A DNA stretch of 59,438 nucleotides, counting the filler, from Dugesia japonica (Eukaryota): assembly GCA_001938525.1 (NCBI GenBank). It is 6 parts of 6 records of this genome, joined end to end, with 100 filler letters (N's around TTAATTAATTAA, not from the genome) between each part and the next. Parts side by side here need not be neighbours in the genome. Positions count along the whole stretch, not along the records: positions 38,549 to 50,541 come from MQRL01634085.1; 5 more parts are not named here. One strand, 5' to 3'. Made by a program: the position numbers and the translations under genes. The notes beneath the pieces were generated by a model. That model was not told the origin of the DNA. It was given only the letters and a program-made list of their open reading frames with translations, and searched no databases. Every line of letters starts with the position of its first letter. The first letter of the stretch is position 1. Below, piece after piece: positions 10,751-50,541 of this stretch.

Positions 10751-11029
10751 AATGTGTGAAATTAATCGTTTTGATATTGAAAAGTATTCGGATTATTTTC
10801 CTAAAAATAGGTATTTATAAGTAAAGCAATTTCTTTAAATACCTAGCGATATTTAAAGCATATGTATAAAATTTTCCTTTACCAGCTAATAAAAGTTTAA
10901 AAATAAATTAAACTTTTCCAATTATTTGTAATTATATAAAATTAAATTCTTTTAAGCAATACCATTTCAAATTAAGTAAGTGTGATAGAAAACTTTAAAA
11001 GCGAATTAAATTATTTTAATAAAGCTTAC

Positions 11030-22500: not shown

Positions 22501-23045
22501 NNNNNNNNNNNNNNNNNNNNNNNNNNNNNNNNNNNNNNNAGATTGCGACTAGTGTTTAATAAAAGATGAGGATCCAAAAAGGAAAAGAAACGTTAAAATA
22601 TACATATATATAAAATTACAGTGCACAACAGACAAAGATGAGGAACAAAGTATACGCTTAGAAAAAGTTATAAATAAAATATTTCAAGAAGTCAAATGGG
22701 AACTAAGAAAATATATAAATATATGAATAATATTACAGGCTCTAGAAAGAAACGAGAGAACACTTCGTGACATATAGGTAAATAAGGAAATACAATCGTA
22801 TTTGGATAAAAATAAAGAACTGCGAATACTAGGTGAGAGGCTATATTTAGAAAAGGATGAGAAATATCTTCTTATTGTGCCCAGACATAAAAGAGAAGAT
22901 GTCATTTTGAAATATCATAAGTCAAAGGTGACCCAGGAGTAGAGAAAACAATAGGAATTATTAAATATGAGTATTATTGGCCGTGTATGGATAAAAACAT
23001 AAGTGAACAACTATCAAAATGTAAACAGTGCAATGCGCATAAATA

Positions 23046-23300
23046 TGTTGGGGTTCCACCTGAGTTAGATGGAGAAAAGTGTGACTGGGGAATGAAGGCG
23101 GTGACATCATCGTTATCGTCCCAAGGGACCCAATCTGGGTTGCCAATCTGGCGAGAAAGATCGGCGATATATTGTTTTAAAAATTCGATCTTTCTCAGTA
23201 GCAATTGCTTGGTTTCGACTTCCAATGCTTTGGTTTGGACTGCTAGATCGTTCTGCTTCTTCACGATTCAGTCCAACCTCTTTATCAATCTATCCGTCTG
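23046..23300 (-). pseudogene. Coiled-coil-like ORF running off the element terminus
   Basis: QTDRLIKRLD*IVKKQNDLAVQTKALEVETKQLLLRKIEFLKQYIADLSRQIGNPDWVPWDD..GGTPT reaches the end at 23046 without a stop. Confidence 0.4.
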
Positions 23301-23611
23301 GGTCTGTCTTACGCTTCAAGTGGCGTTATAACAACAGTCGGCGCATGATGCGATGACATCGGTGAAGACTGTTAGGAAAATTGATACGAGGCACTGAAAG
23401 AAATTAGATTAATATATAAGCAATTAACTGCGAAACTCAGATAAACAATAGAATAAAAAGTCTGAACTCATAAAACCATTGAATAATAGATTTATTTANN
23501 NNNNNNNNNNNNNNNNNNNNNNNNNNNNNNNNNNNNNCCCTTCTCGATCATCAATGGCTCGAGAGGTATTTTTTCCCGGAGTAGTAAGATGTCGTTAACC
23601 AGTTTATTTTC

Positions 23612-23874
23612 TCAGTCATGGCTGGACCGGATAATTTCCGAAAAAGATTCAACCTGCTTCTTCCAGGTTCGTTCCTGCAGGTGTGAGGCTTCAGCTTCCT
23701 TTTTGAAAGCGATGCATTTCTTCCTATATCTAGTCACTTTACTATTGGCAGCTGCTATTTCCGCCTCCCAACGACGTTTGGCTAACTTATACAGATCCCA
23801 GGTGAGATCAAGGTCTTCACTGGTTTCCCGCAGCTTTTTATTTGGAGCCTGTGATTTAGACAGGGAGGAATGCA
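23612..23874 (-). CDS. Coiled-coil-like ORF or exon of the TG...CA element
   Basis: Open frame of ~87 codons with heptad character (LAKRRWEAEIAAANSKV..FKKEAEASHLQERTWKKQVE) following a TTTCAG acceptor at 23876-23875. Confidence 0.4.
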
Positions 23875-24034
23875 CTGAAATATGATTTTTTATTAATTAC
23901 GAAGATAAAAACAAGACAGCAACTTAATGTTACTGGAAACAGAAATTTATCTTAATCTACGCGTGAAGATATAATATAATTGAACTCTAAACAAGACACC
24001 TATTTATTCGTATTCTAAAACAAAACAGCATTCA

Positions 24035-24388
24035 TTAGGGATTATTATTAGTGTCAACATTTGGTGCTGTATTTTCACTATCGGACACTCTAGTTGGCAT
24101 CTAACCCCCCCAGAGAAGGTTAGAGATGAAGGCCTGTAACGCTGGAGCTAGGAGTGGCATTGTAGGCTGATATTGGAAAGGTGTCGCAAGGGTGCGATCA
24201 GGACCTGTCCAGGTTTGATACTGTTGTCGCTCTCCGAAATCCCGTATTCGGGTGACGATAGACTCGACATGGGGTAGGTTGGACCTATCGGCCAAAATAC
24301 CCGCGTCACGGTTGTGTGGGTTGTGATGTCGCCGGAAAATTACTCGACGGGTTCTTCTATCCACTACCCTCTTCCATATAGACTCCAT
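24035..24388 (-). pseudogene. Unknown ~117-aa protein MESIWKRVVDRR... with one internal stop (24103-24101)
   Basis: Homolog at 35428..35784; similarity continues past the stop (SDSENTAP vs EDSENTAP); TTTTTCTAG acceptor 2 nt before the ATG. Confidence 0.65.
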
Positions 24389-24532
24389 ATCTAGAAAAAC
24401 GAGAAGAAAACGGTAAAATTCGAATAAAACAGCATTAATAAGTAAAGACAATTTATATATATGGTTAAGACAACATTACAAAGACTTTTTACAGATTCTC
24501 TCTTGACAATGGAGTGCTAACAAGACGAAAAA

Positions 24533-24715
24533 TCACTCCTCATCTAAATCCACTCTGCTGACCTGGGAAAACGTTACTGCGAGGCAGCATAGGTCAGTCT
24601 CATCCGGATGCTCAATCCCCCCTTTCGTCAGTAGATGAGCTATCAACTGTTTTGTCTGGGCAATTTGACGCTGCTTCTTTATCCAACGTAAGGTGTGACT
24701 CAATTCCGTTGGCAT
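24533..24715 (-). CDS. Small unknown protein MPTEL... (60 aa) of the TG...CA element
   Basis: Intact ORF; same-length homolog at 35927..36109 (MPTEL..LRWIKKQR..AH.LTKG.IEHP.ETDL.CLA..F....VDLDE); pyrimidine tract and AG 3 nt before the ATG. Confidence 0.65.
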   Translation of the reverse strand: MPTELSHTLRWIKKQRQIAQTKQLIAHLLTKGGIEHPDETDLCCLAVTFSQVSRVDLDEE

Positions 24716-27680
24716 GAGCTAAAGAATTGAAAATATCAACCACAGTATGTAATTTATGACTTATTCCCCCGAACAATTAGTCGTCACTGACTGTTATAAA
24801 AGGAAAATAATAATTAATGGCGTGATGCTAATTATGTTCATAGAAACCTCGTTAGGCAAATAATGATAGCCATAACATAGTAATAATAGGTATTATAATA
24901 CCAATAGCAGTGGAAATGAAATTATTTTGGTAATAATACGAATAACCAACATAATGCACGAAGATATAATGATATTATTGCTAATAGTACGGTTAGTAGT
25001 AATTATACAAGCAATCCGAGCTACTAATAAATCGAACAAATTTGCATATACTAATAAAATCCCTAATAATATTAATAGAGGCCAAACTAATCCGGATACA
25101 CCGCTAATCATCATAATTATGATCATCCCACTATCCGTTATAGTAATAATACCATTAATAGTAATTATGGTGATCATAATAAGAATTTACAGTTAACCTA
25201 GATAATAATTATAAAAGCAATTTTATAATAATAATAATTATAATAAGATTAATATTTCTGATATTGATAATATTGATAAAAATAATATTCTTTTATAAAA
25301 TTCTGCCTGTTTATAAAATTTCGTCTATGAGCTCAATTCCGAGTTTTGAAAAATTCCGCTGTTTATGGTTGCCTAGTAGTGGTAACCACTTTCTGATACT
25401 ATCGGATTACACACTGAAAAGTTTGTGTGTGTGTTAACACTTTATCGTATTCACTGAAAAATATATTTTGGTAATCTTGTCATAAATTTCTCTCACTGTC
25501 ATTATGAATAGTACATATTTAGCATCCATGCATGATTGGATTAAGGAAAAAATTATAAAAGCGTGAAACTGAATTACGCTCATAAAAGTTCGGATTGCCT
25601 TTTGAATCATCGGATCATGTGGTTACTAATAAATTTATTTAACTAATAAAGTTGTCCTGCATTCCACTTACTATCAAAAATATTTGGCTAAGAATTTCTG
25701 CAACGGGTTATCTATTCCTCTATTGAAATTTATGATCGATCTTTGGATTGTCGAGAGCTTCAACTGTTCAAAACGATTTTTCTAATTAATTTATACTTCT
25801 GAACAATTTAATTACTATTTACGATGCCTCGGATAACTGGTACGCGATAACTGGTTGTATTTGGGTTTCTTGATGAATATTGATAAATTTGCAGTTACAA
25901 TTTTTTGCGGATAAAAAGATAAAAAACTTTGTGTGTTTCTCTAAATTCCGAGGTCCTTTTATAGGATTTTCTTCACACCCCAACTTCTTCCAGATTTGTT
26001 GGTTATTTTTAGATTGAATTTTTTGACTTTTTATTGGTTCCAGTGCCAATTCTCTAAAATATTCTTCAAGTTTTTTTGCCACGATTGGCAGCTATTTTTA
26101 GAGTGACACATGAAAATTGTGTCTTTTTTTAATTTTATTTTTAGATTTCTTATTGGCCCGATCTTGAGGACCTTGCAGCAACCTTCTGGATGGTGGTAAG
26201 TTTTTTCTTCTTAGCAAGTTCGATGCGTCTTGTTATTTTCTTTCCGTATTTTCTTACCCGGATTCTTTCTGATTTCCTTGAGCGAAGTTATTCGGGTAAA
26301 ACGGATTTTTAACTAATTTTTCTTCTTTTTTATTTCAAAATTAATTAATATTTTTTTGTTAATTAATTATTTTCCTTTAATGATTTCTTAATTTCTCCTT
26401 ATGAATTTAATAATTCTTTTTAATTCCCGTACTGATGTAAGATAATTTTATCTTACCCGGTCCGTCGTATCCATGTTTAATTGTATTTTATTTTTTTCTA
26501 CGGGTTATTTCCATTATAACCCCCTTGACTATGATTGTATTTCCTTTTGGATTTCCTTGTGGGCAGATATAGCGCCTTACTGTTCTTCTTTGCTGATTTG
26601 GGTTTCTTCGGTCTTATTTTTCTTCTTTAATGGGTGTTTCACCCCAACAAATATATTAACGGAAGAATTAAAGCACCATTACAGAATATATCCGAAAAAG
26701 AACCATTTCAAAGTATTGCAATANNNNNNNNNNNNNNNNNNNNNNNNNNNNNNNNNNNNNNNNNNNNNNNNNNNNNNNNNNNNNNNNNNNNNNNNNNNNN
26801 NNNNNNNNNNNNNNNNNNNNNNNNNNNNNNNNNNNNNNNNNNNNNNNNNNNNNNNNNNNNNCATTGGATATCCAAGTTTGGAATACCTAGTCGAATTCAC
26901 TCGGATTGTGGTAGTAATTTTAGTTCAGGTGCATTTGAGAAATATTGCAAGCAATTGGGAATTGTGAAAACATTTTCATCTCCATATTACCATCAAGGAA
27001 TCGGATTAGTAGAAAGATTATTTAGACCAGCGAAACCTATGATTAGTGCAGTACTAGAAGACAGACAAATTCAAGATTGGAGTACGGTGCTACCAATAAT
27101 AGAATATAGATTATGAACAACAACACAAAAAACGACTAAGTACACTCCGTATGAAATAGCATTTTGAAGAAACCTAGAATCAATATGTGGAATGCTGGAA
27201 AGAGGGAAACGAACATCACAAATAACTCTGATCAATATGTAGAACAATTAAAAAGAAATATTATGAATATTCATGGTCATGTAAGAAAAAATATTGAAGA
27301 ACATAATGAATTTACAGCAGCTAAATATGACAAATATCGGCGGAGAGATGAAATTAAAATTGATGATAAAGTTCTGATAAAAAACAATGTACATGATGGT
27401 TTTAAAAGGCGATTTATTGGACCATTTAAATTAATAAAGAAAATTAATGAATGGACTTACACTTTGCTTGATGAAAATAGAAACACTTTAATTCAAAGAA
27501 ACTACAACCAAATCAATAGAATACCAAGAGATGAACTTTCCTACAAGTCCTGGAGCACACAAATATCAGTAAGTAAACAGAAAACAGCCTTACCAGTACA
27601 ACCTGGCCGACAAATTGAGAGTGATATCAGAAGACGTCATCCAGAAAGAATGACAAGGAATCCGAATCCTCAATATCGAT

Positions 27681-27859
27681 AAAGCAAAGAGAGGAATGTG
27701 ATATATTTAAATNNNNNNNNNNNNNNNNNNNNNNNNNNNNNNNNNNNNNNNNNNNNNNNNNNNNNNNNNNNNTTTGATTTGTTTTAATATTGCTATTTTA
27801 TAAAATATAATTTTAACTTGTTAAATATCTTATTATTTAATATCTAGATTTATATAACA
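27681..27859 (+). repeat. Polypurine tract (27681-27696) and 3' LTR (27697-27859) of Gypsy A
   Basis: AAAGCAAAGAGAGGAA directly followed by TGTGATATAT...TATATAACA inverted termini; the LTR contains an N gap. Confidence 0.7.
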
Positions 27860-27860
27860 A

Positions 27861-28013
27861 TACGTAACTCAACTTCCTAACTTAGATGATTTGAAGGAAC
27901 GTATTTTTGAAGCATCTAGAGTAGTAACAGTTGAAACATTGCAGAATGTTCGTCATGAATTTGGAAATCATTGCTTATTTCAAAATGGTGCTCAATTTGA
28001 ACATTTATTATAA
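27861..28013 (+). pseudogene. C-terminus of a Tc1/mariner-superfamily (DD37D/DD41D-like) transposase into which Gypsy A inserted
   Basis: YVTQLPNLDDLKERIFEASRVVTVETLQNVRHEFGNHCLFQNGAQFEHLL* matches the conserved VY..P....LK.RI...NG.HFEHLL terminus and begins right after the LTR. Confidence 0.75.
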
Positions 28014-28697
28014 GGTAATACTTTTTTATTTGCATAGCCGGACTGTTTTAAAATNNNNNNNNNNNNNNNNNNNNNNNNNNNNNNNNNNNNNNNNNNNNNN
28101 NNNNNNNNNNNNNNNNNNNNNNNNNNNNNNNNNNNNNNNNNNNGATGAAGATTCAGAACATAATACATTATTTTTCTTTCATTATTGACATTTACCTGTG
28201 TTACAATATTTATTACAACACTAAAAACAAAGATAATGCACAAATTAAACATTTTTTAAAATCGTCTTGAATCTTGCGAACTGTAAAATTTTTCACGAAG
28301 GGTCACATAAGGCCACCTCCTGGCATAAACAAAGGTTAACAGCATTTTAGTGAAATTTAGTCGATTTGATTTACCAGTATAATTTTGATACATACAAACA
28401 CAAACACACATACATATGTGTGTGTGTATTACATAATGTAGTTAATAAGTTATATCAATAAGAGAACAACCTTTTTATTAGAGAAAATATGATTAACGTT
28501 CAGTCAAAATAAAAAAGGAATAAAGCATTAAATAAAACCCGAAAAAATAAATAAAAAATACATAATTATTTACTACTAGCTGACAAAACCGCACTACAGA
28601 GTATTGATATGTATTCAACAGTGAAACCGGATTACCCTTAATTTTATTTGGAAGGTTTGAGCATTACCAGAACGGACATGATAGCGACTTGCAATCA

Positions 28698-28833
28698 TTA
28701 TTGGGGAGCAACTTTCAATAAATCTGTTCGAGCAGCTACAAGTAATTTAAAAGCATCATCACTACCCGGAGCGATATTTTTATCTGGATGAAGAATCACA
28801 GCAAGTTTTCTATAGGCACGATTGATGTCATCT
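28698..28833 (-). CDS. DNAJC27: Last coding exon of DNAJC27/RBJ (Rab-like GTPase with C-terminal J domain); upstream exons are off the scaffold
   Basis: TTCCAG acceptor, then (R)[47 protein letters not shown] motif and close match to the DNAJC27 C-terminus (AYRKLAVLLHPDKCVAPGSEDAFK..ARTALLK). Confidence 0.8.
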
Positions 28834-28882
28834 CTGGAAATAAATAAATTGTGTTCAATGAGAAGATTCTCTTTTTCGTTGA

Positions 28883-28982
28883 NNNNNNNNNNNNNNNNNN
28901 NNNNNNNNNNNNNNNNNNNNNNNNNNTTAATTAATTAANNNNNNNNNNNNNNNNNNNNNNNNNNNNNNNNNNNNNNNNNNNN
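28883..28982. other. Artificial scaffold spacer N44-TTAATTAATTAA-N44
   Basis: Same structure as the other spacers. Confidence 0.95.
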
Positions 28983-29269
28983 AAGTTTGTTATGCATTCG
29001 GGCCAGGCGGACCACGATTCGGCATTGATATAAAATTAAATGGACAAAAAGTTAACACACTTCTAGATACGAGATCAACACTATCCATAATAAATAATAG
29101 CAGTTTATCCAATGAACAACGAAAAGAGAAACTTATCAGCGATCATACAGCTAGAGCAGTAGATTGAGTATCAGTCAATTTAATCGGAATATTACCCTGT
29201 GAGGTATCTTACAAGGGAAAAACAGTATTACACTTTTGACAACAAGAGAGTTTCAAGATAGTAGGGTAA

Positions 29270-31013
29270 CAATGTCAAAAGGTATTTTTCCGTATAATTA
29301 TAAAACCAGTTTGCAAGTTCTGGTTGAGACAGTTGAGATTCCATTAATATGGGATGATGTGAAGGAGGAAAATACAACAAGGCAATCAAGATGTGGAGAA
29401 TAATGGGTTGTCAAAATTTGTTAGATTATATGATGATTTATCTAAAGCTTGACATGTTTCTGTTAGCGGACTTCTTTCAGCAGTTTAGAAGAAAATCATC
29501 GTCTCATAATAGTCTGGAGCCCCTGACTTTTATCGGAATACCAGGGATGAGTTGGACATCATCGCTGATGCCATTAGATGAGCCAATGAAACTGTTAAAA
29601 GATAATGAAATGTACACCTTTGAAGGGGGAGTTAGAGGAGGGCTAACATTTGTCAACAAACCTCATGTTGCCTCCAATGAAAACACAAACCTATTATATA
29701 TCAACATTAATAATCTGTATGGGTGGGCATTAAGCCAGAAGCTGCTCTATGCGGATTTCGAGTGGGTTCACAATGGATTAAATGAAATTTTGGAAGAATG
29801 TAAGATGGCGGACCTTGAAACGTTGCCATACAGATACTCATTGGAGGTGGATATGATGATTCCATCATAAACACAGGATTATCTAAACAATCTCCCAGTA
29901 GTAGCGGAACACTAAAGCGCTCCAGGAAGTAAAGTGAAAAAATTAATGTTAACACATTATCCGAAGAACAACTACATCATTCACTGGAGGCTGCTACAAA
30001 GGTATATACAGTTAGGTGTGGAGGTTAGAAAGATAGACAGAGGAGTTCAGTTTAGACAGGGACAAATTTTCAAAAAATATATCGATGCGAATACCAAACT
30101 GCGGTCAGAATCTGAAACCGAATTAGATAAAAATTATTATAAAATGCTCAACAATAGCCTATATTGGAAAACGGTTGAGAACCTAAAGAAACGAATAAAT
30201 TTGCACTTGTGTAATTCAGCCAAGAAGTTAATAACATATGCATTGAAAGCTGGATTTCAAAAATCAATAAAAATGATGATGATCTGATAGCTGTTCTTCT
30301 CAATAAGGAAATTGTATGTTTATATCGTCCGAGCTACATTGGACAGACGATACTTGACTTCTCAAAGTTAAGAATGTACCAACTACAGTACATCGAGTTG
30401 GAAAAGGATCGTCAAGAAGAGAATTGTAAAAAGGGTATTGTAGCTTGCAATACGGATAGCCTTTTCCTCGAAGTTGCAGATATAAGTTTGGAAAAGCTAA
30501 CCGGTATGATGCTGAAGGATCAGTTGTTGGACACCTCAAATTACAACACAAGCCACCCCCTTTACAGTAACAGTCCCAACTCTGCTATTAGAAAATTTTA
30601 GGATAAAAGTAAAGGAGTTAAGTGCAAAGAATGGATTATATAGCCTTTTGAGTGATAAAACAACAATGAAGGCAAAAGGCATAACAATAAAGAATAGTAA
30701 TTTAAAACATCAGTCATACCTTGNNNNNNNNNNNNNNNNNNNNNNNNNNNNNNNNNNNNNNNNNNNNNNNNNNAGTGATAAAACAACAATGAAGGCAAAA
30801 GGCATAACAATAAAGAATAGTAATTTAAAACATCAGTCATACCTTGATTGTTATGAAAATAATTTGCCAGTTTCAATAGATTAATTTAGAATTAGTTCGA
30901 TAAACCACCAGCTATATAGTTTTAAAAACAAAAAAGTCGCACTCACTAATAACGACGATAAGCGAGTGTGGACTAAAAAAACATATCAGTACTATATTGG
31001 CATTACACATTAA
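29270..31013 (+). pseudogene. Protein-primed family B DNA polymerase (Polinton/Maverick or beta-adintovirus type), disrupted
   Basis: KGIFPYNY, YLKLDMFLLADFFQQFR (exo III), GGVRGG, YININNLYGWALSQ (motif A), YKMLNNSLYWKTVEN (motif B), NTDSLF (motif C), KAKGI and NDDKR; several stops and frameshifts. Confidence 0.9.
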
Positions 31014-35427: not shown

Positions 35428-35784
35428 TCACGAAGGAGGAGTTGATACATCCGGTACGGGTGCGGTATTTTCGGAATCTTCACTGCCCGAGGGCTCCCTT
35501 ATGCCTCAGAGCAGGTTAGTAATGAAAGCCTGTACCGCGGGAGCTGGAGTTGGGGTGTGAGGCTGATAATAAAAAGAAGTCGCCAGAGTGCGATCAGGAC
35601 CTGTCCAAGCCTGTTATCGTTGACGCTCGCCATAATCTCTGATGTGCTCGTCGATGGATTCCACCGGAGGCAAATTAGACCTGTCACCCAAGATTCCCGC
35701 GTCCCGATTGTGAGAGTTGTGATATCGTCGAAAGATTATTCGACGACTTCTTCTGTCCACTACCCTTTCCCATTTGAATTTCAT
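35428..35784 (-). pseudogene. Unknown ~118-aa protein MKFKWERVVDRR..., copy 2, with two internal stops
   Basis: Frame continues through the stops: QAWTGPDRTLATSFYYQP..QAFITNLL*G..DSENTAP. Confidence 0.65.
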
Positions 35785-35926
35785 CTCTGAGAATAACAAA
35801 AGAATGGTAAACTCACATAACAAAGTATCAAGATGTAATAAATAATTTATTTTTAAATAGTTAATACACACAAAAGAAAGAAAAAAAAATCTATTTATTG
35901 TCATAAGGGTCTCAATAAAACAAGAG

Positions 35927-36109
35927 TCATCCCTCGTCCAAGTCCACTTTCCTCTCCAAAGGAAACATCTCGGCGAGACAATAAAGGTCTGTTTCATATG
36001 GGTGCTCAATTTTCCCTTTTGTCAGCATATGAGCCAACAACTGCATGGACCGACTAGTTCGACGCTGCTTTTTTATCCAACGCAGGACACGGAGCAATTC
36101 CGTCGGCAT
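35927..36109 (-). CDS. Small unknown protein MPTEL... (60 aa), copy 2
   Basis: Intact, aligns without gaps to 24533..24715; TTTCTTTCTTTAG acceptor 2 nt before the ATG. Confidence 0.65.
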   Translation of the reverse strand: MPTELLRVLRWIKKQRRTSRSMQLLAHMLTKGKIEHPYETDLYCLAEMFPLERKVDLDEG

Positions 36110-38116
36110 GGCTAAAGAAAGAAACTATTAATCGCATTGTTTATCTCAACACGCGGTTCCCAAAAGCAAATGGTTTTTCTTGGAGGACATTATTATTAAG
36201 GGAATTATAACCAAGTATCAGTGGCGTTTAAGAAGACGTTCAATTAAGACCATAATAATCTAAGTAACATAATAATAATCTTTACGACACATATCGACAT
36301 GACCCTAAATAGTAGCACAATTATTGTGATAGAACTACTATTAATAAAATTTATTCTTTATAATTGCGTGAAAACATAGTGATAACTTTGATATCGAACT
36401 ACAACCATCCTAGTTCCGACCATTAATCCCTTGAATAATTTTATATATAAGGCTGTAATCCATGATAATGTAAGGTGAATACTGATTTGTTATAGGTGGA
36501 TAAAGTAAAAATTTTTATAGACGGCTTTTTACTAATAATATCTCTAGTAAAAGTAATAATAAAAACCCATAAAATTACTATTAATAATCATAAAATAAAG
36601 TACCATGATTAAATTAAAGATTTCATTATATTTAATATTTTAAATTTTTTCACGTTATCGTTACATAGCGACGGTTTCCTTAGTAAACTGGTCATTACCA
36701 AATTTTTCCAAGTTTCTGTGCGTGAACACCACTTCCTTATAAGTGTGTATAAGAATCTAATTTATACATAAATACCAAATTGATGCCATGATTATCTCAG
36801 GGAATCTACACACACCATCCCATGATTCGGCGATTAATGCTAATTCTGTCGTTATTTCCAATTTAATCACTATCACTATTAGAAAATAAGATGTTTATTT
36901 CGACTCTAATAGTGGATTTGGTGAAACATAAAAGAAAAGGAGTTTCATGAACGAGTGGAAATTAGCTGAATAGAGTGTGTTACCCTCCGATACCTGACTA
37001 TGGAGATTCTTGAATTGAAAATCAACCGAGGTAAAATATATATATTTTTTAATAAACGGTTGAAATCTTAGTTTCTCTTTTAATCATAATTCAGTAAAAA
37101 GAAAAAAAACAAAATTGTTCATGTTTCTAGTTGATGGTGAACCGGTAATCTAATTGTGGTTCAATGGTTTAGCTTCATCATTTTTTCTCGTGCGCATCAT
37201 TTTCATTTTAACGAGCAAGGGGCGGAACATGCCTTCGTTTTTCTGTTTTCTGTAATTCACTAACTAATGGATCGAAAATTTATAATACCTAATTTATCAT
37301 TTAGATAAACTATCTGTTATACTTAAGATCTTTGGTAACAAAATCACAAGTTAAGATTTCTAACATCGATACATTTATTGAAGTATTAATATTTAAATTT
37401 TTTTAGCATAACATTTTTTACAATCAAAATAAAACTTTACTTTTTTAGAACAAATTTAGGAATTTCTTCAACAGTTCAAAAGGGATTGCCGATGCTAAGT
37501 GTATTCTTTATTTGAGTAATGGTTTTCTTTGGTGGTGATTCTCTTGTCCTTGAAATAATGTTAATCAATACTCAATGAATAGTAATTTNNNNNNNNNNNN
37601 NNNNNNNNNNNNNNNNNNNNNNNNNNNNNNNNNNNNNNNNNNNNNNNNNTAGCTAATAAGAATATGTCGTTTGTTAGTTAGTTTGTTAGTTTGTTTGCTA
37701 AATTCCGGGGGGTTTTTTATACAATATCTAAGACACCCCGACTTGTTTGCCATTGGTCAGTTATTTTTAACACATTTCCATTGGCGTTGCTGCTACTTCT
37801 CTGAAATTTTGTAGAGTTTTCTGTGATTCCGTTGGTCCTTATTTTTGGATTATCAGGTGAGCTTTTTTCAGGTTCTCATTGGCTCAATCTTCCAACACTT
37901 GTGACGGTCCTCCTAATGGTCGCAACGTTTTCGGACTAAGAAATTTTGTGGCCCGATACCAATCTTGATTCAAATTCTCTTTCTCCGAGTACTTGTGACT
38001 TTCTGGGGTAAAGTTATTTGAAGAAAACGGATTTGGGTTTCATTTTCATTGAATTTTTCCGCTTAAATAATTGATATGTTCTTATAGTAGGGAGCTTAAA
38101 CTAGTTAAGCTTAAAC

Positions 38117-38548: not shown

Positions 38549-39381
38549 TATTATTCGTATCCACAATAATTTTATCAATTGTTTCGTAAGAAATTAACAA
38601 TTTAATTTTTTGATCTAATCAATGTTTTTAAAATATAAACGCTATACGTCTGTTGCTAAAATAATCATAGGAATGCTTTTTATAATTTTGCTCTCAGGTT
38701 CTGGATTTTTTGTGGTACCCCAAAGTGGCAGAATTTTGTCTTTATAATATTGATAGTTTTTGTTGTATTTGTCCGAGTTTTGATTTTTTATCCTATAGTT
38801 CATATGTGAATTTATATTCACCGGTTTATAATCTATTTCTTTAATCGCGCTTTGAGTAGGGTTAGGTATTTTATAGAATTTTGTNNNNNNNNNNNNNNNN
38901 NNNNNNNNNNNNNNNNNNNNNNNNNNNNNNNNNNNNNNNNNNNNNNNNNNNNNNNNNNNNNNNNNNNNNNNNNNNNNNNNNNNNNNNNNNNNNNNNNNNN
39001 NNNNNNNNNNNNNNNNNNNNNNNNNNNNNNNNNNNNNNNNNNNNNNNNNNNNNNNNNNNNNNNNNNNNNCGGAAGCGCGAGTTACGAAATCAAATCCTCC
39101 AACCCAATTAATAGTAGTTACATATTTAGAGCTAGGGTTTTATCCGGTATGTTCGATGTACTTGCCTATACCATTAAATAATCCCCTACTGTTATATACA
39201 GGTATGTAGGTCTATAGAAGGTGTTATGTGGAGGAATTTCAAATGTATATTTATGTGAATATATACCTATTTCTATCGTAGGCCAAGAGCCTTTCCTAGG
39301 TGATAAATACGTGAAGTCTGCTGAACAGCTTGTTATAATCGATAATAATATTAGTGACATGATTGGTAATGAATTTTGTGA

Positions 39382-42300
39382 TTATGATCTGAGATGATAT
39401 TTGTATGGTTTTGGGGTTATCATTTCTGTTTCTGCTAATTTGCACCTATTGACTGCAACTACTGTAGGATCATCATTTTTGTTCTTTATCACTTGTAAGT
39501 TTGTATCTGTTACTTTCACTAATTCGAAAGGTCCTTTAAATGGTCTGGCCAGTTTGTTTGTTAAACCCTTTTTTGAATTTGGAGTCTTTATTTGCACTTT
39601 ATCTCCAACTTTAAATTGATGTGGTTTCGCACTTTAGTCATAATAATCTTTGTACTGTTCTTGTTTGAATTTTACTCTCAATTCAGCTTGTTTATAAACT
39701 TCCTGTAATCTTTCCTGCATTTTCGTGACATAATCCGGATTTTCCATGTATTGTGATACAATAGGCTCGAATGTAACATCTATCGGATTGTGATTTTTTC
39801 TCAGGTACATTAAGTAGAATGGTGAATATCCGGTTGCTTCGTTTTCTGTTGTATTATGAGCAAATAGTGCTGGTTTGATAAATAAATCCCAATCATTTTG
39901 ACTTTTGTTGACAAATACTGATAGTCTGTTGCATAGTGTATTATTAAATCTTTCCACAAGACCGTCTGTCTGTGGGTGGTATGCTGAAGTATTTATTTTT
40001 TGAATATTAAAAATTTCGTTGACTCTTTTAACTGTTTCGCGGAAGAAATTTCTACCTCTGTCTGACAGTAAATTTTTTGGGTGCTCCATATTTAAAAATA
40101 ATTTTCTCTACTAACAACTTTGCAACTGTTTCCACTGATTCGTCTTTGGTGGGAAATGCTTCGGCCCACTTTGTAAAATAATCGCTAAATACCCAAATAT
40201 GTTTATTTCCTTTTATCGTAGTTGGTAATTTGCTTAGGAAATCTATAGTGTATATCTCCAATGGGGCTGGCATTGGATGAAGTGGTACTTTTGTTTTTGT
40301 TCCAGTGTTCTTTCTAGTTGCACATATAGAACAAGCTTTGCACCATTGTTTTACATCTTCTTGTAAGTTTTGCCAATAACATTTTTGTAAAATTCTAGAT
40401 GCTGTTTTTCTACTTGACAGATGTCCACCAAGAGCACCATCGTGATATTGGAGAAGTAACATCTGCTTTAATGAATAAAGTACACCCCATAAATATTTTC
40501 CCATATTGTCATACACAAGCAGATCCTTGTATATCTTATATTTTGTATTTTCATTGAGAATATTTCGTATTGATTTGATGATTTTATCTTTTCTTTGTTC
40601 ATCTGAGAAAGTTTTATCGTTTATACCTTCGGCTATCATAGCCATTAGTTCTATTATTTCTACTTCTTTTATATTAGGAATTCTTGATAATGCATCAGCA
40701 TTTCTATTAGCTCTTCCGGGTTTATATTTAATTTTTATATTCATATCTTGGATTTTCATAGCCCATTTTAGTATCCTGCTGGATGTATCCTTGTTTTTTC
40801 ATAGGCCTTCAAGTAGTTTATGATCTGTTCGTATAGTAACTTCTGTTCCATAAATAAATGGTCGAAATTCTTTCAATGCGTATATTATTATTATTATATT
40901 ATTATATCCACTTACGTCTGTCATGATTATAAATGGTTTGTTGAAATCTGGATATCTCAATATTGGTGGTGTTATTAATTTTTCTTTTAACATTCCAAAG
41001 GCTTTCTGTTGATTATTCCCCATAATTTTTGTAACTTTGATGAGCTTTCATCTATTTTTTCGGTAATCATCACATTCTTACTTTCTCCTTTTGTTTTTAA
41101 TCCTTTTGTTAATTGCACTAATGGGGCGTATATTTTGGCAAAATCTTTTATAAATCGTCGACAGTAACCAACTAATCCGTTATAACTCTGTAGTTGTTGC
41201 ACTGTTTTTGGTATTGGGAAATGTTTTACTGCTTCTATTTTGTCTGGATTTGGTTGCAAACCTTTTGATGAGACAATATGACCTAAAAATAATACCTGTT
41301 CCTCCGCCCATTTAAATTTTGTTAGTTTCAGTTTTATATTTGCTTTTTGTAATCTGGATATCATGTTTTCTATGTTTATCAAATTTTGTTCAAATGATTC
41401 TCATACGATAAGAATATCGTCCATATATACTATTACATGTTCCACATCTATNNNNNNNNNNNNNNNNNNNNNNNNNNNNNNNNNNNNNNNNNNNNNNNNN
41501 NNNNNNNNNNNNNNNNNNNNNNNNNNNNNACCGTCTTCTGTTACAAATGCAGTTTTTTCTCTATCTTGTAATAACACTTTTAGACCATAAAAACCTTTGT
41601 TAGTATCGAATATAACAAACCATAATGCTTTACTTAATTTATTAAATTGCTCTTGTATTTTCGGGAAAGGGTGTGTATCTTTCTTGGTGACTTCATTTAG
41701 TTTTCGATAATCTACACACATTCTGATTTCTCCATCCTTTTTCTTCACTGGCACTACTGGTTATGCCCATGGAGAGAAACTTTGCACTATTATTCCGTTG
41801 TCTTTCAATTCTTTTATTTGTCGCTTAATTTCTCTCAATTTATTTGGTGCAACATATGGCCATTGTTTAATTGGTTTAGCATTACCTGTGTCAATGGCAT
41901 GTTGTATAATATCTGCTTCACCCATATCAAATTCATGTTTTGCTAAAACATCTTCATATTTATCTATTACTGCTTGTAATTGTTGTCGTTGACACGCTGT
42001 TAGATTACTATTGGTTATTTTAGTTTTATCATAAAACTTGGTTTGCTTAGTTATGATTTTGTCATAAATTATTGTCTCTTTTACTATTTAATTTTGTTTT
42101 CTAGGGTTATTATCGTTAATTGTAATTTCATTTATTTCACAATCTTCGTTTTTTACATAAAGTTTACCTAATTTTATACCTGGAAGAAGATTAACGTCTT
42201 GATTATTATAATTAGCAATTCTTATGGGCATGTTTCTCTCTTTTGGTACAAAGCATCTGGGTACTATTGATATATTACATTTTTGCTCTAATTGATAATT

Positions 42301-42750
42301 TGGTTCGAAAAAATAAGTATTTTAACTACGGAACCCTAATTTTGCAGGCATTCGTATGAATATTCTATTTTCGCGTTGGACTTTAGATATAAATCGTTAT
42401 TTGCTTTTTCATTATTTACGGAAGCTGATTTTCGTAATTTATTGTTTTGTAGATCTATAACGTATCCTGTCAATTTTGATAATAAATCCATTCCCAAAAT
42501 ACAATCTTGTACCCCTTGATCTACAACTCGGAATGGGTGTTGTATATTTTCATTTTCTACAGTCTATTATCCCTTTTATATGTAATTTGTGACCCGTGAA
42601 TGATTATTATTCCTCTGACAGTCTCGTATCAAGATTCTCTTGTTGTTTTTTGTTAAGAAGTACCTCTTTAATTATTGAGCATGCTGCTCCAGTGTCTATT
42701 AATGAAGATATGTTATATCCGTTTATTGATATTATCATCGTAGGTCTAGG
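39382..42750 (-). pseudogene. pol: pol of Gypsy B (PR-RT-RNase H-IN with GPY/F motif)
   Basis: ORF fragments 42607.., 41401.., 40987.., 40799.., 40052.., 39634.. and 39382.. carry the canonical motifs in Gypsy order. Confidence 0.92.
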
Positions 42751-42979
42751 AGTATCTCCATTTATTGCATATATCTCGTGAGAGTTTTGTGGTGCAGTAT
42801 ATCTTATTATTTTTTTGTGTTCAAGGTTTGATTTTAATTCATTAAGTTTATCTGTTTCTGATTGATTAGGTTTGTTAATGTAATTGTTTAGTTCTGTATT
42901 CTCATCTCTGTTTGATAGATCAATTGTGTATGTTTGATTTTGTATTTCTAATTTGCTGATTATATCCTGGTGTTTTTGC

Positions 42980-44650
42980 ATGATTAAATGTTTTGCAATA
43001 AATGGGCATATACATGCTGCTAATTTCCATGTAACNCCAAATACTGAATGAAATTGTTTTAATGATATTAATTGATGGCATGCTAATTTCAATAAAATTG
43101 ATACATAATATATTAATAGGAAAAACGAAAATATACCACCGATTGTTTGTGCTTTGCCTAAAAGTTTATCAATAAAACCTTGTATGGCTCTTTTGTAGTG
43201 ATCTACATGTAATAGTGACTCAAAATTAATATCATCTGCTTGGCTTCCTTTATTAATTCTGTCAATCATAATTGATATTATCTTTTCCCTTACTTTAGGA
43301 AACAGGACATGTTTTCTGGCTTTCTATATATCTTCTTGAGTATATATGCCAGCATTTTCCATATTGTCTTGTCTATCGAATATCACTTTTCTCTGTAGTT
43401 CCATCATTTCTAATACGGCAGACATTTTCGCTGTTTTACGATCTAAGGCTGTGATCCATATATCATCATTTATTTTGTATAATGGATCGAGAACATTGCT
43501 ACATTTGTTAATTTCTTTTGGTTTATAATTTTCATCAGTTAAAATTCGTGTCACAGGTAATAGGAAGACCTTTTTATTGTTATGTATTACTGGTAATTCA
43601 TTTGTACATTTTGGGTGATCTGTTAACGTAACCTTTGCTATTTTACATTTAAAGGTGCTTCACCCACGATTCTTCCAAAAGTTCCCGTTTCCTTGAACAA
43701 TAGTGGAGTCATTAAATCTGGATTAGTGCAAGCTAGTGCCATCTTTGTGCGCAGCAATTCTATATTTACTTTACAATCTCTAGATAATGTTTCATCATAT
43801 AGTTTTTCCATTTGATATATTAAATTATGGTATGCACAATCACGTTTATTATTAAAATATGAAGCTAATTTGATGTCTAATTTATCTACTAGATCTTTAG
43901 AGGCTTTAATAAGTTTGGTCGATATATATAATCCATTATAGTTGGTTTTCTTTACTACTGTTGTACATTTGATTGTTTCTCCTTTGTCAATAAATCTCAT
44001 AAGATCCTTAGAAGAATTTGTTACATATATTGTAGGAGTTGCTTTCTCTTGTATTACTGTTAATTCTCTCTTTTGATCTCTTGNNNNNNNNNNNNNNNNN
44101 NNNNNNNNNNNNNNNNNNNNNNNNNNNNNNNNNNNNNNNNNNNNNNNNNNNNNNNNNNNNNNNNNNNNNNNNNNNNNNNNNNNNNNNNNNNNNNNNNNNN
44201 NNNNNNNNNNNNNNNNNNNNNNNNNNNNNNNNNNNNNTTGACTGAATCAAATGAATCTTTTAATTTCCTCAATTCTACATAATACATCCGTCTTACTACT
44301 AAATTACTCCTTGTTTCTCCCCATAGATAATAGTCACATCCTTTGCACCATCTTCCTCCGGATGACCATCCGATTATATTTTTTGATTGTCTTACTTTCA
44401 CTCCAATTCTCGCTTCTAATTTAACTTTTTCATGTACTGTTATTTCTTTGTTTTCAAACGCTTTATCGCAATCTTCAGCTGATATATTTACTGCTTCTGG
44501 AAATATTATGTTTATATTATGTAGTTTATTTATTTTACTTTTAAATGTTGTGTTAATGTGTTTCTTTTATATATTTATTAAAGTATTCAATACAAAACTG
44601 TCAAAAGAATCCTTATATAATTTAGCATTTAGTTGCAAGGTTACGCTTTA
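42980..44650 (-). pseudogene. env: Chuvirus-like / gB-type (class III) envelope glycoprotein, disrupted, N-terminus missing
   Basis: GRWCKG..SNLVV, KTNYNGLYI, YFNNK, DCKVN..TKMALACTNPD, GRIVGE..KC, CTNELPV..VFLLPVTRIL, C..LDPLYKINDDIW, AGIYTQEDI*KARKHVLFP, then a TM region GGIFSFFLLIYYVSILLKL..FHSVFxVTWKLAA. Motif order matches chuviral G and its retroelement-borne homologs. Confidence 0.82.
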
Positions 44651-44857
44651 AATTCTCAAAAGTTTTTCGCAACTTTAACTATACTGTGAATTTCGTTTCA
44701 ACTCACGAATCTAAATTTCTAATTTCGTTTCAAAAACTATCTTATTCAAATTTCGCTTATATCAAAAGTTTTATTGGGTTTTATTTCAATTTTATTTTAT
44801 TTAAAATTTCGTATTAAACACTTGTATATTTGAATATATATATTATTTGAATCGGCT

Positions 44858-44874
44858 CCTCACTCGGGGCACCA
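44858..44874 (-). promoter_or_regulatory. Primer-binding site, probably for elongator tRNA-Met
   Basis: Minus strand TGGTGCCCCGAGTGAGG; plus strand CCTCACTCGGGGCACCA resembles the 3' end of metazoan elongator tRNA-Met (CCTCACACGGGGCA-CCA). Confidence 0.75.
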
Positions 44875-45692
44875 AATTTTTTGAGATACCTTGGGGGATT
44901 TGACCAAGACAAGTCAACAATACGTGAGTTTAAGTAATTGATTTTATAAAACTATTGAAATACCAATTTATACTAGTGTTATAGTGTGAAACCTTTATAT
45001 AGCTAATATAAATATAATGATATAATATAAATACACTATATAGTTTTCTTTGTCTTTTACAAAATAAATTACTTCAAATGAAATTTTATTAAAAAAATTG
45101 TCAATTACACGTTATTATTTTGGCCCAGTTGTGAATTGAACGCAATCCAAACTGTTGTATGGCTTAATAATTTGGTGTTTAAAAGGAAAAGTAATCCACT
45201 ATTTATACTAGTGGCTTATGAAAATCATACACATAAAATAAACGTAAAATTTTCCATAATTTACGTTAAATATAAAATAAAAAAAAATTTTCCATTATTT
45301 ATAAAAATNTTCATACATTTACAATAAAAATTAATAAAATTTACCGATTAAAAATGAGATTTTCCGTTGTTTATTTTTATAATCCAAATTGATTTATGAT
45401 CGATAAACTTTAATTTAATGTACTTTATTTTAACTTTGTAATTTTAATGTGAAAATTCAAAAATTTACATAATAAAAAAAAAGAAATTTTTCAATAAAAT
45501 TTACAACTTGTTCACACAAATAAAAATAAAAATTCAAATAAATAATAAATAAATAAATTATTTGTACAGATGGAGTTCCCAGTATGTTTAGAAAAAAAAC
45601 AGAGGATTTGCTACTCTTTTACTTCAGGCCAATCCCTGTGTAATCTTTGCCAAAGTGTTCATTTAATACATTATTAAAATAGTATTTCTACC

Positions 45693-45952
45693 TGTTAGGA
45701 ATTTAAAAATAAACTCCCATTTCTAATTTTCAAAAATCATCATTTTAAAATAATTCTGATAAATTTTATATTGATTATTATAGCCAGTAAATTTGTCAAC
45801 ATTAAAATAATTTACCTTTGAGGAACTTTGTCTAAATATTCTGAATTAGAATATTAATTTTTATTGTTAATAAATCTTAAAGTTATTGAAATTATTTTAT
45901 GGATATTGAAACTGAACCCAATAACTTAATGACAGGTAACATGGCGACCACT
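45693..45952 (+). repeat. 5' LTR (45693-45941) and PBS (45942-45952) of Gypsy C
   Basis: TGTTA...TAACA inverted ends directly followed by TGGCGACCAC (tRNA-Arg-like PBS). Confidence 0.65.
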
Positions 45953-46392
45953 ACCAAGGATTTATTATTTACAGATTATTATGGAGATATTCTACAGAGG
46001 GGATAACCTAGAAGAATTCATTACAGATTGCCTTCGACTTTTCAGTGTCACCAATACAAATCTGAAGATGCAGGAAATTTTGGTAACTACCTTATTGGAT
46101 AAAGCATTATTGGAGAAACATGAAAATGCATAAGGAAAATCTTTGGAAGAAAAGCTTAGAAATGCCTTCCAAAAACCAAGTTCCTTAATAGAAGATCAGA
46201 AAGAAGCTTTAAGTTATGAGCAAGGCAACGATTCGACAGAGATATTCATCGATAAAATCAAAAAATTGACAAAAAAGTTAATTATTCATAAATGGGACGA
46301 AGAAGAAATAGAAAAATGCTTATTAATTAATTGTGTTGGAGATAAAAATGTAAAAAAAAAAGAAATAGAAATGCGAGAATTAAGAACATCAG

Positions 46393-46934
46393 TGAAAGTG
46401 TGTTTAGAAAAGCGAGTTAAAATTTTTGTGTGATTGGTGACCATATTTTTAAAATCTTTTGTTTAAAAGAAAGATTTAAAGTATTGATGAAGAATTTAAA
46501 TAACAAATATTGTTTTTAATGATAAATTAAAACTTTTGAGTAAAGGGAAATTTTTCTTAAATTTTAATTAACTAAATAAAATGTTTGAAATAAATTAAAT
46601 TAAATTAATTTTAAATAAATTAAGTTTCAATTTAAAAAAAATTCAAAAATGATGATTGGATANNNNNNNNNNNNNNNNNNNNNNNNNNNNNNNNNNNNNN
46701 NNNNNNNNNNNNNNNNNNNNNNNNNNNNNNNNNNNNNNNNNNNNNNNNNNNNNNNNNNNAAATTTAAATAAATAAATTACAGTTTTCGATTTTGAAAAAT
46801 GATCACCAATGAAAACACAGGATTTTAATTTGTCTAAATAAACAAATAGTATTAAGCATAGTTTGTATTTGAAATAAATTTTATGGAATTGAATTTTGAT
46901 GTTGATAATCCAAGTTCTCAAAACTCATCTAACA
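46393..46934. mobile_element. ~540-bp TG...CA insertion (solo LTR) with 5-bp TSD inside gag of Gypsy C
   Basis: ATCAG|TGAAAG...CTAACA|ATCAG. Removal restores in-frame ELRTSEQIRSTIMKVEKV, joining ORFs 46143 and 46960. Confidence 0.85.
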
Positions 46935-49900
46935 ATCAGAACAAATCAGATCAACAATAATGAAAGTTGAAAAGGTAAATAAAGCAATTGGTCATATCAA
47001 TGTTCTCAGAACCTTAACAACCAAGAATTTACGAAGTTATAGAGACATGGTACAGAAGAGACAGTTGAGAGATACAGATATGAAAATAAATAAATATGAA
47101 AATAGACGAATTCNNNNNNNNNNNNNNNNNNNNNNNNNNNNNNNNNNNNNNNNNNNNNNNNNNNNNNNNNNNNNTTTTCAATGCTATGCATGTGGAGCAG
47201 TAGGACACATGCGTAGAGAATGCCCAAGAATTCAGTGTGGAAGATTTCTTTTGTGGGAATATAAAACAACAGAATTTTACACAAATTTAAAAAGAAGACA
47301 GAAAGAGAGAATAGTTGATAATATAAATTATAAGAGACATGATAATGTCAGAAATCAGAGTAATGAAACTAGAGATTTCATGAACAAAAATCAACAGAGA
47401 AACAGACAAAATCAAAAGATTACAGCAGCAATTGGTTCTAATGGCATACACCAGCAGAAGAACAAACCAATGAACTAACTGATGTATTTGAAGCAATAGA
47501 GTACCCAATAGGTTATGCTCCTTCCAGAGAGGCGATGGTCGGAGCAATTTATTAGGTAATTTTGATGTAGATATTGGCTATAATAATGTAAATAAAATAG
47601 AGTATTTTAATTTTAAAAAATTTATATTAAAAATTCATCTAGTAAAAAATTAAGTAACATGTATAGTACTAATTTTTTTAATTCTATACATGATAATTAT
47701 CTTGTAAATAATAATGATGACAACAATAATGAATAAAATATAACGTTAGATGATAATGAGTATATTGATTTGAGAGTTACAGAGAAGATTTATAAATTTA
47801 TTAAGAAAGATTTTGATGTAAATGAAAATGAAATAATAGAAGGTGCATATGATTATATCGATCAGCAAATTTTAACTATAGACAAAAGGAAACGACCAAG
47901 AATAACCTATAATAAAATGCAAGGCAGACCAAGTATAACGATAAGTATTTAGTGTCGTGAGATGGAGTGTCTATTAGATAAAGGTGTCAGAGTTAACGTA
48001 TTATCATAAACAATACTAGATAAATTAGAAGAAGTAGAAATAGTTAAAGCGAATGAATTATTAAGATGTGTGAATGATAGTAAATTAGAAACAATGGGTA
48101 AAATTCATATTAATGTCAAATTAAAAAATGAAGAAAAGAAAAAAACATTTATAGTAGTAAAAAGTATTTTTCCGGATATTATTGGAGGTATTGAGTTTCA
48201 AAATAAATTCGGTATAAAACTGACGTGGATAGAGAAAACAAAAGAAAGGACAGAATATTTTATTAGTGATATAGAAGTAAAGTATGGCAGGAATTTCATG
48301 GATGATGAAAGATTACGATGTGCAACAGAACTTTTGAAATTGAGCAAAAATAATAAATTAATGGAAATCGCGCAAAGAAATAAAAATTTCTTCATGGCAG
48401 AAAAGTGGGATATTAAGTGCACGGCTTTAGTTGAACACAGAAGTAAAACGAATGGAGGACCGATAAAAATAAAACCAAGTAGGCAGGTTGTAAATTTAGA
48501 AGGAAAAATAAATGAGGCTAAAAAATTTAGAGGACAATGATATAATCAGGAGATGCAATTCACCTTGGAATACACCTTTGGTATGTGTTTGGAAAAAAGA
48601 AAAGAAAGATATCAGATTGTGTCTAGATTTTAGACAATTGAATCAAATTACGGAAAGACAAGCATTCCCTATGCCAAATGTTGAAGAGATTTTGGATACA
48701 TTATATGGTGCTAAATATTTTAGCTCTATCGATCTTGGCAGCGCTTATTACCAAGTAAGGTTTGATAAGGAATCACAAGAAAAAACGGCTTTTCCACAAA
48801 GGAGAGCCAATTTTGTTTTAATAGAATGCCATTTGGCATTGCGACAGTTTCTGGAACATTCCAAGAATTGATGAATAAGATATTAAAAGAGATGTGGAAG
48901 GATGGANNNNNNNNNNNNNNNNNNNNNNNNNNNNNNNNNNNNNNNNNNNNNNNNNNNNNNNNNNNNNNNNNNNNNNNNNTTTTGAAGACAATTAAAGACG
49001 CAGGATTAAGAATTAATCCAGAAAAATGCTAACTGTTAAAAAGAGAAGTTAAGTTTTTAGGTCATATAATAAATGACGAAGGCATTCAAATGGATTCGAA
49101 TAAAATAGAAATTATCCAGTTATTTCAAAGACTAAAATATCTAAAAAAACTTGAGGAGTTTCTTAGGCATATATAATTATTATAAGAAGTTTATTAGAGA
49201 TTATTCAAAGAAATAAAAATCATTAGAAGCTATGTGTGGGGAAAATAATTCAAAATTAATATGGTCTGATTTGTGTGAAAAAGCATTCGATGAAATTAAA
49301 TTAGCATTAATAAGCTCTCCAATATTGATATTCTCAGATTTCCGAAAAGAATTTATACTCGACACCAATGCAAGTTTTGATACAATTGGAGCGGTATTAT
49401 CTCAAGAGGATGAATACGGACATGTAATAGCATATGGATCTCATTCTTTGAATGATCATGAACGGGGTTACGGTATTACTAGAAAATAATTGTTGGTGAT
49501 CTACTATTTCTGTCGGCATTTCAATCACTACTTATATGGTAAACAATTTACACTACGCACACATCATAAAACGACTACATTCATGCTAACTACTAATAAA
49601 CCAATAACGGCACAGTTCCAAACATGGATAAATTATTTAAATAGCCTGGATATTAAGAGCCAATATGGAATTTAGAAAAGGTGTAAGACACGGCAATACA
49701 GATATCTTTTCAAGAAATACATGCAGAACATGCGTACAATGTCTGTTGGATCATTATCAATCAAAAGTAGGGCGATTAAAAATGAGATTGATAACCATCA
49801 TGGCGGAAGATAATGGTGAAAATTGGCAAAATAATTCCAAAGAAATACAGAAACTAATTGAGGGGTTAAATAGACAAGAGACTGCTAAATTTATTGTTGA

Positions 49901-50541
49901 TAACGGTATTGTTTACACAAAATATAACAAGACAATAGACAAGAAATTATTAAAAAGACTCATGTTTTACAGTGTCAGGCAGGAACAGAAAAACAATGAA
50001 ATATATTAAAAATAATTTTGATATAAAGGATTTGGTTGTTGAAGTAAAAAGAATTATATCAGAATGTGATCAATGTNAAAAGACAAAGATAGTAACGACA
50101 AAGGTAAAAAGAAGACACCAAAGTAGTAGTGGCAATGAACCGTTCGAGAAAATATAAATGGATATATGTGGACCGTGAAAGAAACACTAAAACGAGAGAG
50201 ATAAATTTGTGCAATTATCGACCACTACAGTAAATATATAGTATTCANTGCTATAAATAAACAAGATGAAAAGACAATAGTCCAAGTTTTACTGAATATT
50301 TGGATACTAAAATTTGGAGCACCGAAGGAATTAAATGTAGATTGTGGGGAAAGGTTTGAAGCAAAGGGTGAAAAGGAAGTGACAAGTGCAGTAGTAATTG
50401 AGCTAATATTCTCTGGTTCATACTATCACAATATCAATGGCATGGTTTAAAGACAGTTTCGAACCATTAGAGAATACATAAATGCATCATTAAAAAAATA
50501 TATTACCAGAAATTGAGTACAGTTTGAATTCGACAACTCAG

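Follow-up and report, generated by a model that had tools for sequence, protein, structure and literature searches.

The question that this locus raises is whether a gypsy retroelement of Dugesia japonica joins its envelope glycoprotein to its enzymes in a polyprotein that begins with env, the 'Env-Pol' architecture claimed for it in an earlier note on this DNA, or whether an env-first order arose by damage to one copy of a differently built element. The window, i.e. the whole stretch of DNA analysed (59,438 nucleotides, filler included), has a GC content of about 27% and contains 2269 N in 42 runs. We conclude that the lineage very probably encodes a single Gag-Env-PR-RT-RH-IN polyprotein, and that the window holds a decayed, likely internally deleted copy of it, with a gB/chuvirus-type env in the frame of the protease (PR).

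Layout of the decayed copy

The retroelement copy lies on the minus strand. Pfam and tblastn both give the order env, PR, reverse transcriptase (RT), RNase H (RH) and integrase (IN), in agreement with the gypsy PR-RT-RH-IN order previously claimed downstream of env. At its start is a primer-binding site (PBS) at 44858..44874 (-), with the motif at 44874 and the end of the 5' LTR just upstream, above 44874. This PBS is most like the tRNA-Met(CAU) type: in the tRNA table given as part of supplementary file 1 of PMC13524379, two Met_CAU entries differ from it at 1 of 12 nt. Two entries that the same table classes as 'others' are likewise 1 mismatch away. The PR-RT-RNase H-IN order and a tRNA PBS following the 5' LTR are both features of Ty3/gypsy elements. 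Next comes an AT-rich, non-coding leader at 44498..44857 (-), which by its GC content, stops and profile comparison contains neither gag nor the signal and N-terminus of env, and which abuts env in the middle of the ectodomain.

The env region consists of four collinear pieces, all on the minus strand and all matched by PF24664 (Monjiviricetes_fusion). The first, a domain I piece at 44240..44497, matches positions 102-185 of that profile with E 0.022 and a profile built from the relatives with E 4e-13. Beyond a 154-N assembly gap within env (44084-44237) is a domain II-III piece at 43659..44072 (PF24664 242-377, E 4e-15), and past a frameshift follows a domain IV-V piece at 43324..43656 (PF24664 381-484, E 9e-17), which ends in a stop. 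The last piece, at 42607..43323, is an open frame that runs from the membrane-proximal region of env through the transmembrane segment (TM) and a linker into the N-terminal half of PR with its DTG, and it matches both PF24664 (487-630, E 1e-13) and RVP (E 0.001).

The pol part is heavily damaged. Two stops (42609-42604) interrupt PR, as does a frameshift near 42560; the remainder of PR, the PR-RT spacer and RT (RVT_1, E 1e-9) occupy 41100..42606 (-), where a 78-N gap adds to stops and a frameshift, and many further stops and frameshifts are scattered through pol. RNase H, integrase (H2C2 and core) and a GPY/F-SH3 tail lie broken at 39430..41017 (-), identified by Integrase_H2C2 (E 2e-17), by weak matches to rve and rve_3 and by tblastn with the relatives P0003 and P0033. 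A signal-peptide-like hydrophobic segment at 39319..39372 (-), with a hydropathy of 2.19, shares the frame of the integrase and is separated from it by one stop; the tblastn HSP of the relative P0002 reaches 39301. The broken rest of the post-integrase extension, with a stop and a 185-N gap, covers 38642..39318 (-). A 3' LTR, sought as a repeat of the 5' flank, was not detected in the window, where N gaps lie downstream of the copy and a neighbouring element upstream. Having neither gag nor env signal and carrying many stops, the copy is a decayed and dead Ty3/gypsy element.

The neighbouring element is a second gypsy element at 45942-50200 (+) that points away from the first; its own PBS-like motif lies at 45942, and it contains PR, RT and a gag piece with zf-CCHC at 46933-47478. 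The zf-CCHC ORF at 46933-47478 was considered as the gag of the env-bearing element and rejected, as it is on the plus strand and part of this second element, which has its own PBS, PR and RT. Since the two PBS sites are about 1.07 kb apart, both 5' LTRs must be short or truncated. Elsewhere the window contains a host gene with a TIR_2 domain across two ORFs (550-2490, +) and a low-complexity open frame of 1846 aa (11006-16546, -) that has no Pfam match and is probably a large host exon. More gypsy remnants and fragments lie on the plus strand at 20098-23067, 26631-27682 and 29358-30884; some fragments in the 20098-30884 region resemble B-family DNA polymerase by eye, and the one piece scanned gave no Pfam match. 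Near-identical duplicates flank 50-N gaps (20184-20392 and 20443-20651; 30651-30723 and 30774-30846) and are likely scaffolding artefacts. Two repeat copies, 24108-24739 and 35504-36131, are 70% identical and contain a short ORF with no Pfam match.

The junction between env and protease

The minus-strand ORF at the junction extends from stop to stop over 43323..42607 (238 aa), with its first ATG at 43269, and bears out the uninterrupted course described earlier from the glycoprotein through the TM and an Asn-rich linker to LIDTGAACS. It comprises the membrane-proximal region, the TM (43146-43075), an amphipathic stretch, an Asn-rich linker of about 80 aa and the protease motif LIDTGAACS at 42702-42676; a single N at 43036 falls on a third codon position and leaves the frame unaffected. 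The one stop formerly placed within GIYTQEDI*KARKHVLFP is indeed present, at 43326-43324. One tblastn HSP, from residues 529-876 of the relative P0026, bridges the env-PR junction of the copy.

Across env, linker and pol, the contigs of two public runs, both of one organism, have depths of a similar order of magnitude, and none of these contigs covers the whole element in one piece. The pair of stops that ends the ORF is absent in the other copies found among them. From the env-TM-linker-PR topology it is reasonable to suppose that Pol would be tethered to the env tail.

Relatives and the polyprotein of the lineage

When the env-PR ORF was compared with longer proteins by shared words, none of 1310 candidates matched; an exhaustive phmmer search, with the env-PR frame as query and its single stop written as X, then gave 295 matches at E <=0.001, of which 150 were listed. 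A retropepsin follows env in one ORF in all of the 10 best matches and in 15 of the 150 listed (14 by motif, P0132 by Pfam), fragments and stand-alone glycoproteins some 650 aa long making up most of the remaining listed matches. The fusion is thus a family trait and not the chimeric join that had been named as an alternative to it. Four relatives (P0026, P0033, P0132 and P0176) carry env-PR-RT-RH-IN unbroken, and the Pol matches are all of gypsy type by Pfam and domain order. An intact member of the window's exact family was absent from the sequences examined; among the matches listed, the env of the closest protein relatives is just 32-37% identical to that of the window (phmmer).

Ahead of env, Gag-type CCHC knuckles occur in 4 of the 11 relatives in which the start of env could be located, and P0034 gives a weak match to Retrotrans_gag (E 2e-4). 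In the other 7 of these 11, whose ORF calls may begin downstream of gag, the part ahead of env lacks a CCHC knuckle. Mature env starts with (A/G)(Y/F)DC after a hydrophobic, signal-like segment in all 11, and because at least 148 residues of the ORF precede this start in each of them, the env signal of the relatives is internal.

The RT of the window is 37-44% identical to that of the fused relatives. In a tree of 28 RT sequences (IQ-TREE), built from unnamed elements, without a BEL reference and with the +48 kb copy left out, the window groups with P0003, P0026, P0176, P0177, P0002, P0033 and P0035 (UFBoot 90), i.e. with six env-fused or signal-tailed relatives and P0177; P0132 falls outside this clade with weak support. 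P0033 and P0002 carry source labels of bacterial MAGs (Flavobacteriaceae and Turicibacter, respectively), and both are gypsy polyproteins, probably from mis-binned eukaryotic contigs.

Several relatives have additional regions. Tandem retropepsins are found in P0176 (7 stretches in 4844 aa) and P0028 (several), and P0026 has 3 motifs, one of them past the integrase; P0176 also contains ankyrin and C2H2 fingers. Ahead of the env signal, P0037 has a Bcl-2-like region (residues 9-70, Pfam E 0.00096), as reported for Burro, and a GGW motif like that of this region is seen near residue 106 of P0029 and near 1309 of P0048. In P0003, residues 47-235 form a signal-ectodomain-TM module right before PR, in place of a gB-type env. 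This module is 27% identical (E 2e-4) to the protein's own post-integrase module, and may be a different surface protein occupying the env slot.

One DNA ORF need not mean one protein: splicing, or initiation at an internal start, could bypass env and yield a Pol that is never tethered to it. An obligatory 1:1:1 ratio of Gag, Env and Pol, which is unusual among retroelements, speaks for such a route. Skipping env would not, however, require an open frame, and the linker between the TM-proximal motif and the PR motif, which varies from 129 to 389 aa, keeps its frame open in 16 of the 16 relatives measured; a frame preserved over so variable a linker favours read-through. Among the joints listed none is RNA-supported, a weak point against skipping, with RNA depth below 10 over the element. 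The RNA reads there (X15, X18) are few, mostly less than 95% alike and of uncertain library polarity, and give no firm signal of expression, strand or splicing. We regard env-skipping expression as improbable, and read-through into a single polyprotein remains the preferred reading.

Identity and fold of the glycoprotein

The env had been called a class III fusogen of the chuvirus G / herpes gB kind. Two lines of evidence uphold this: the PF24664 matches of the window's own pieces, and a fold comparison for the relative P0037, whose model (pLDDT 83.6, from an alignment of 73 sequences) matches HSV gB with E 1e-13 and chuvirus G with E 5e-44. The assignment to the gB-type class III is accordingly supported, the modelled fold being that of P0037 and not of the window's protein.

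Compared by eye with Smed_errantivirus_3, the domain I piece is identical at 42 of 86 positions and the domain II-III piece at 31 of 52, the latter count being limited to the stretch given in the supplement of PMC13524379; together these make 73 of 138 (53%, domains I-II). Among themselves the six Smed elements have a median identity of 33.5%. The likeness to Smed_errantivirus_3 ends at the same point as the profile match.

Loss of gag and of the env N-terminus

The glycoprotein had been traced upstream to 44650, a limit that has to be moved: homology begins only at about 44497. The relatives' env profile matches the window from position 110 onward alone. With a profile limited to its first 140 columns, each of the window's six frames came out below 0 bits, against 67-118 bits for 4 relatives held out of the profile. 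The window's env lacks about 80 conserved residues of the ectodomain, several cysteines among them. The 360-nt leader between PBS and env has a GC content of 22%, against 30-34% in the coding parts, and 10-15 stops per frame. At the join of leader and env, contig depth in the two runs falls 13- to 43-fold below the adjacent env bin, to 324 and 455, a dip that could alternatively reflect a fast-diverging AT-rich leader. The simplest reading is that an internal deletion has likely removed gag, the env signal and some 80 ectodomain residues from this copy, a deletion deduced from missing homology without a full-length sister copy.

As this deletion would have taken gag together with the start of env, the apparent 'env-first' layout is a property of the damaged copy. 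The term 'Env-Pol' does not hold for the lineage, in which relatives have Gag upstream in the same ORF (CCHC knuckles in 4/11). HSV/gB-type errantiviruses are defined by an intact gag-env-pol, and since this copy lacks gag and the env N-terminus, it is classified as a deleted derivative of the lineage and not as an intact errantivirus.

The missing gag might instead be an artefact of assembly, in which a collapsed repeat brought together leader and env from two different copies. The draft state of the assembly (42 runs of N, 2269 in all), the high copy number of the family and the depth dip at the join all fit such an event. The join lies, however, within an N-free stretch (44238-45308), and many private joints in single contigs of the family make real deletions seem common; the artefact is therefore held to be highly improbable, and would leave the conclusion on the family unchanged either way. 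A genuinely gag-less Env-Pol family, or a non-autonomous subfamily, in which env would start at an ATG near 44628 and Gag would be supplied in trans, is scarcely credible. Within about 250 nt of the PBS there is indeed an ATG with a short stretch of hydrophobic residues (hydropathy 1.55), and the depth at the join is low yet non-zero. This stretch, however, runs into stops and does not resemble env N-termini, the leader is riddled with stops in every frame, an env lacking those conserved residues and cysteines could not fold, and relatives carry Gag in frame.

A membrane module behind the integrase

Among the relatives that extend beyond the integrase, 6 of 8 have a second signal-like segment there, which is found in none of 12 other gypsy Pols. 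It is absent in P0001, and P0177 ends 19 aa past the integrase; in this survey 9 of 29 proteins were skipped for want of the anchor motif. Downstream of the second signal, 4 relatives have a clear C-terminal TM and 5 an FN3 E-F-type motif. The segment at 39372-39319 of the window is the counterpart of this second internal signal, at the same position as in the 6 relatives, and the piece downstream of it (38642..39318) gave no Pfam match, no atlas match and no significant match to the relatives' extensions. As judged from the sequences, a post-integrase membrane module probably exists in the relatives.

Atlas FN3 clusters score 0.88-0.90 for the module with only 141-156 shared features, which is at the level of a lead, and Pfam fn3 gives E 0.003 in 1 of 5 modules. 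A single-sequence model reached a pLDDT of 39.9, and its fold search (best Z 5.4) was uninformative; the word search returned no homologues and PDB no sequence match. Given so poor a model and these blank searches, the FN3 identity is treated as a lead only.

In herpesviruses the attachment partner of gB is gD/gH-gL. We suggest, tentatively and as a doubtful possibility, that the same polyprotein contains a second surface protein, in which an internal signal is followed by one or two FN3-like domains and by a TM, and which would be the attachment or receptor-binding partner of the lone gB-like fusogen; the attachment role itself is a guess. If true, the polyprotein would span the membrane several times in the manner of a flavivirus precursor, Pol forming a loop between two glycoproteins, and the module would be a concrete candidate for the attachment step missing from the Gag-Env-Pol group. 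A published signal/FN3 module behind the integrase was not found in the literature covered, outside which lay several figures, Repbase, Sacco 2022 and Grohme 2018.

Proposed mechanism

The hydropathy layout of the relatives is Gag, signal, gB-like ectodomain, TM, linker, PR-RT-RH-IN, signal, small ectodomain and TM, and hydropathy is the sole basis for the topology and cleavage proposed here. Gag would be made first, in the cytosol. Led by the internal signal, the ectodomain of env would then pass into the ER lumen, and signal peptidase would cleave there, ahead of the conserved (A/G)(Y/F)DC start. The env TM would halt transfer, so that linker and Pol remain cytosolic and attached to the tail of env. 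This would anchor Gag and Pol alike to the membrane at the budding site until they are released by the element's own protease, the dimerisation of which env trimers may aid, and the second signal past the integrase would export the small ectodomain with its own TM anchor. The window copy is incapable of any such step, since gag and the env signal are gone and stops are many.

Comparison with known systems

That the layout might be undescribed, a point which the earlier note left unconfirmed, is not the case: Burro elements (PMC6431247, 2019) and GAG-ENV-POL gypsy elements in three phyla (PMC13524379, 2026) precede it. Parallels exist among BEL/Pao elements. Anakin, described in PMC7642597 and named in PMC12440569, has a chuvirus-type glycoprotein in an LTR element; it is BEL/Pao, whereas the window element is gypsy. 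Atlas virus makes a single Gag-Pol-Env polyprotein and, according to the text of PMC9094657, is likewise BEL/Pao and not gypsy, with an env that comes after pol and is a class II fusogen. Troyka, also considered as a parallel, is not relevant on what PMC12440569 says of it.

The nematode endogenous retroviruses (NERV) have nematode hosts, and are likened to the window by description, not by sequence. The elements of Sacco et al. 2022 reportedly have a continuous gag-env-pro-pol ORF. An ENV before POL is cited for NERV in PMC13524379.

Planarian Burro elements, giant gypsy elements described in PMC6431247 (Arkhipova and Yushenova 2019), encode one polyprotein in which env, which resembles mononegaviral glycoproteins, sits in frame between gag and PR. 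Of this arrangement in Burro / GYPSM1 the window copy shows the env-PR frame, its gag side being gone. The region that would correspond to the giant Burro ORF with its BCL2/BIR/MATH and ankyrin cargo is missing from the window copy, which is compact on the pol side, with one protease and no ankyrin seen; Burro-type cargo does occur in the window's relatives, as a Bcl-2-like region, ankyrin and an ORF of 4844 aa (P0176). A dUTPase-like segment, which is a Burro trait, was considered at 42321-42091; this stretch has no Pfam match and aligns with the PR-RT spacer of P0033.

The nearest published systems are the GAG-ENV-POL gypsy elements with gB-type env of Nematoda, Bryozoa and Platyhelminthes (Chary and Hayashi, eLife 2026, PMC13524379). 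These elements are not monophyletic according to that paper, which gives their mechanism of cell entry as unknown, and the words 'polyprotein' and 'fused', fibronectin and accessory domains do not appear in its main text. In the Gag-Env-Pol group, capsid, fusogen and enzymes all derive from a single precursor threaded through the membrane, a retrovirus-like design. With the Platyhelminthes C1a HSV/gB-type errantiviruses of that paper, Smed_errantivirus_3 in particular, the window shares a gB-type env upstream of a gypsy pol; unlike Smed_errantivirus_3, the window copy is not intact, with no gag, a shortened env and stops. Their 53% env identity suggests a sister family of Smed_errantivirus_3 and not the same element, a placement drawn solely from the by-eye comparison of env. 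The window element is one more decayed family within a published group, and as such its addition matters little beside the design of the group itself.
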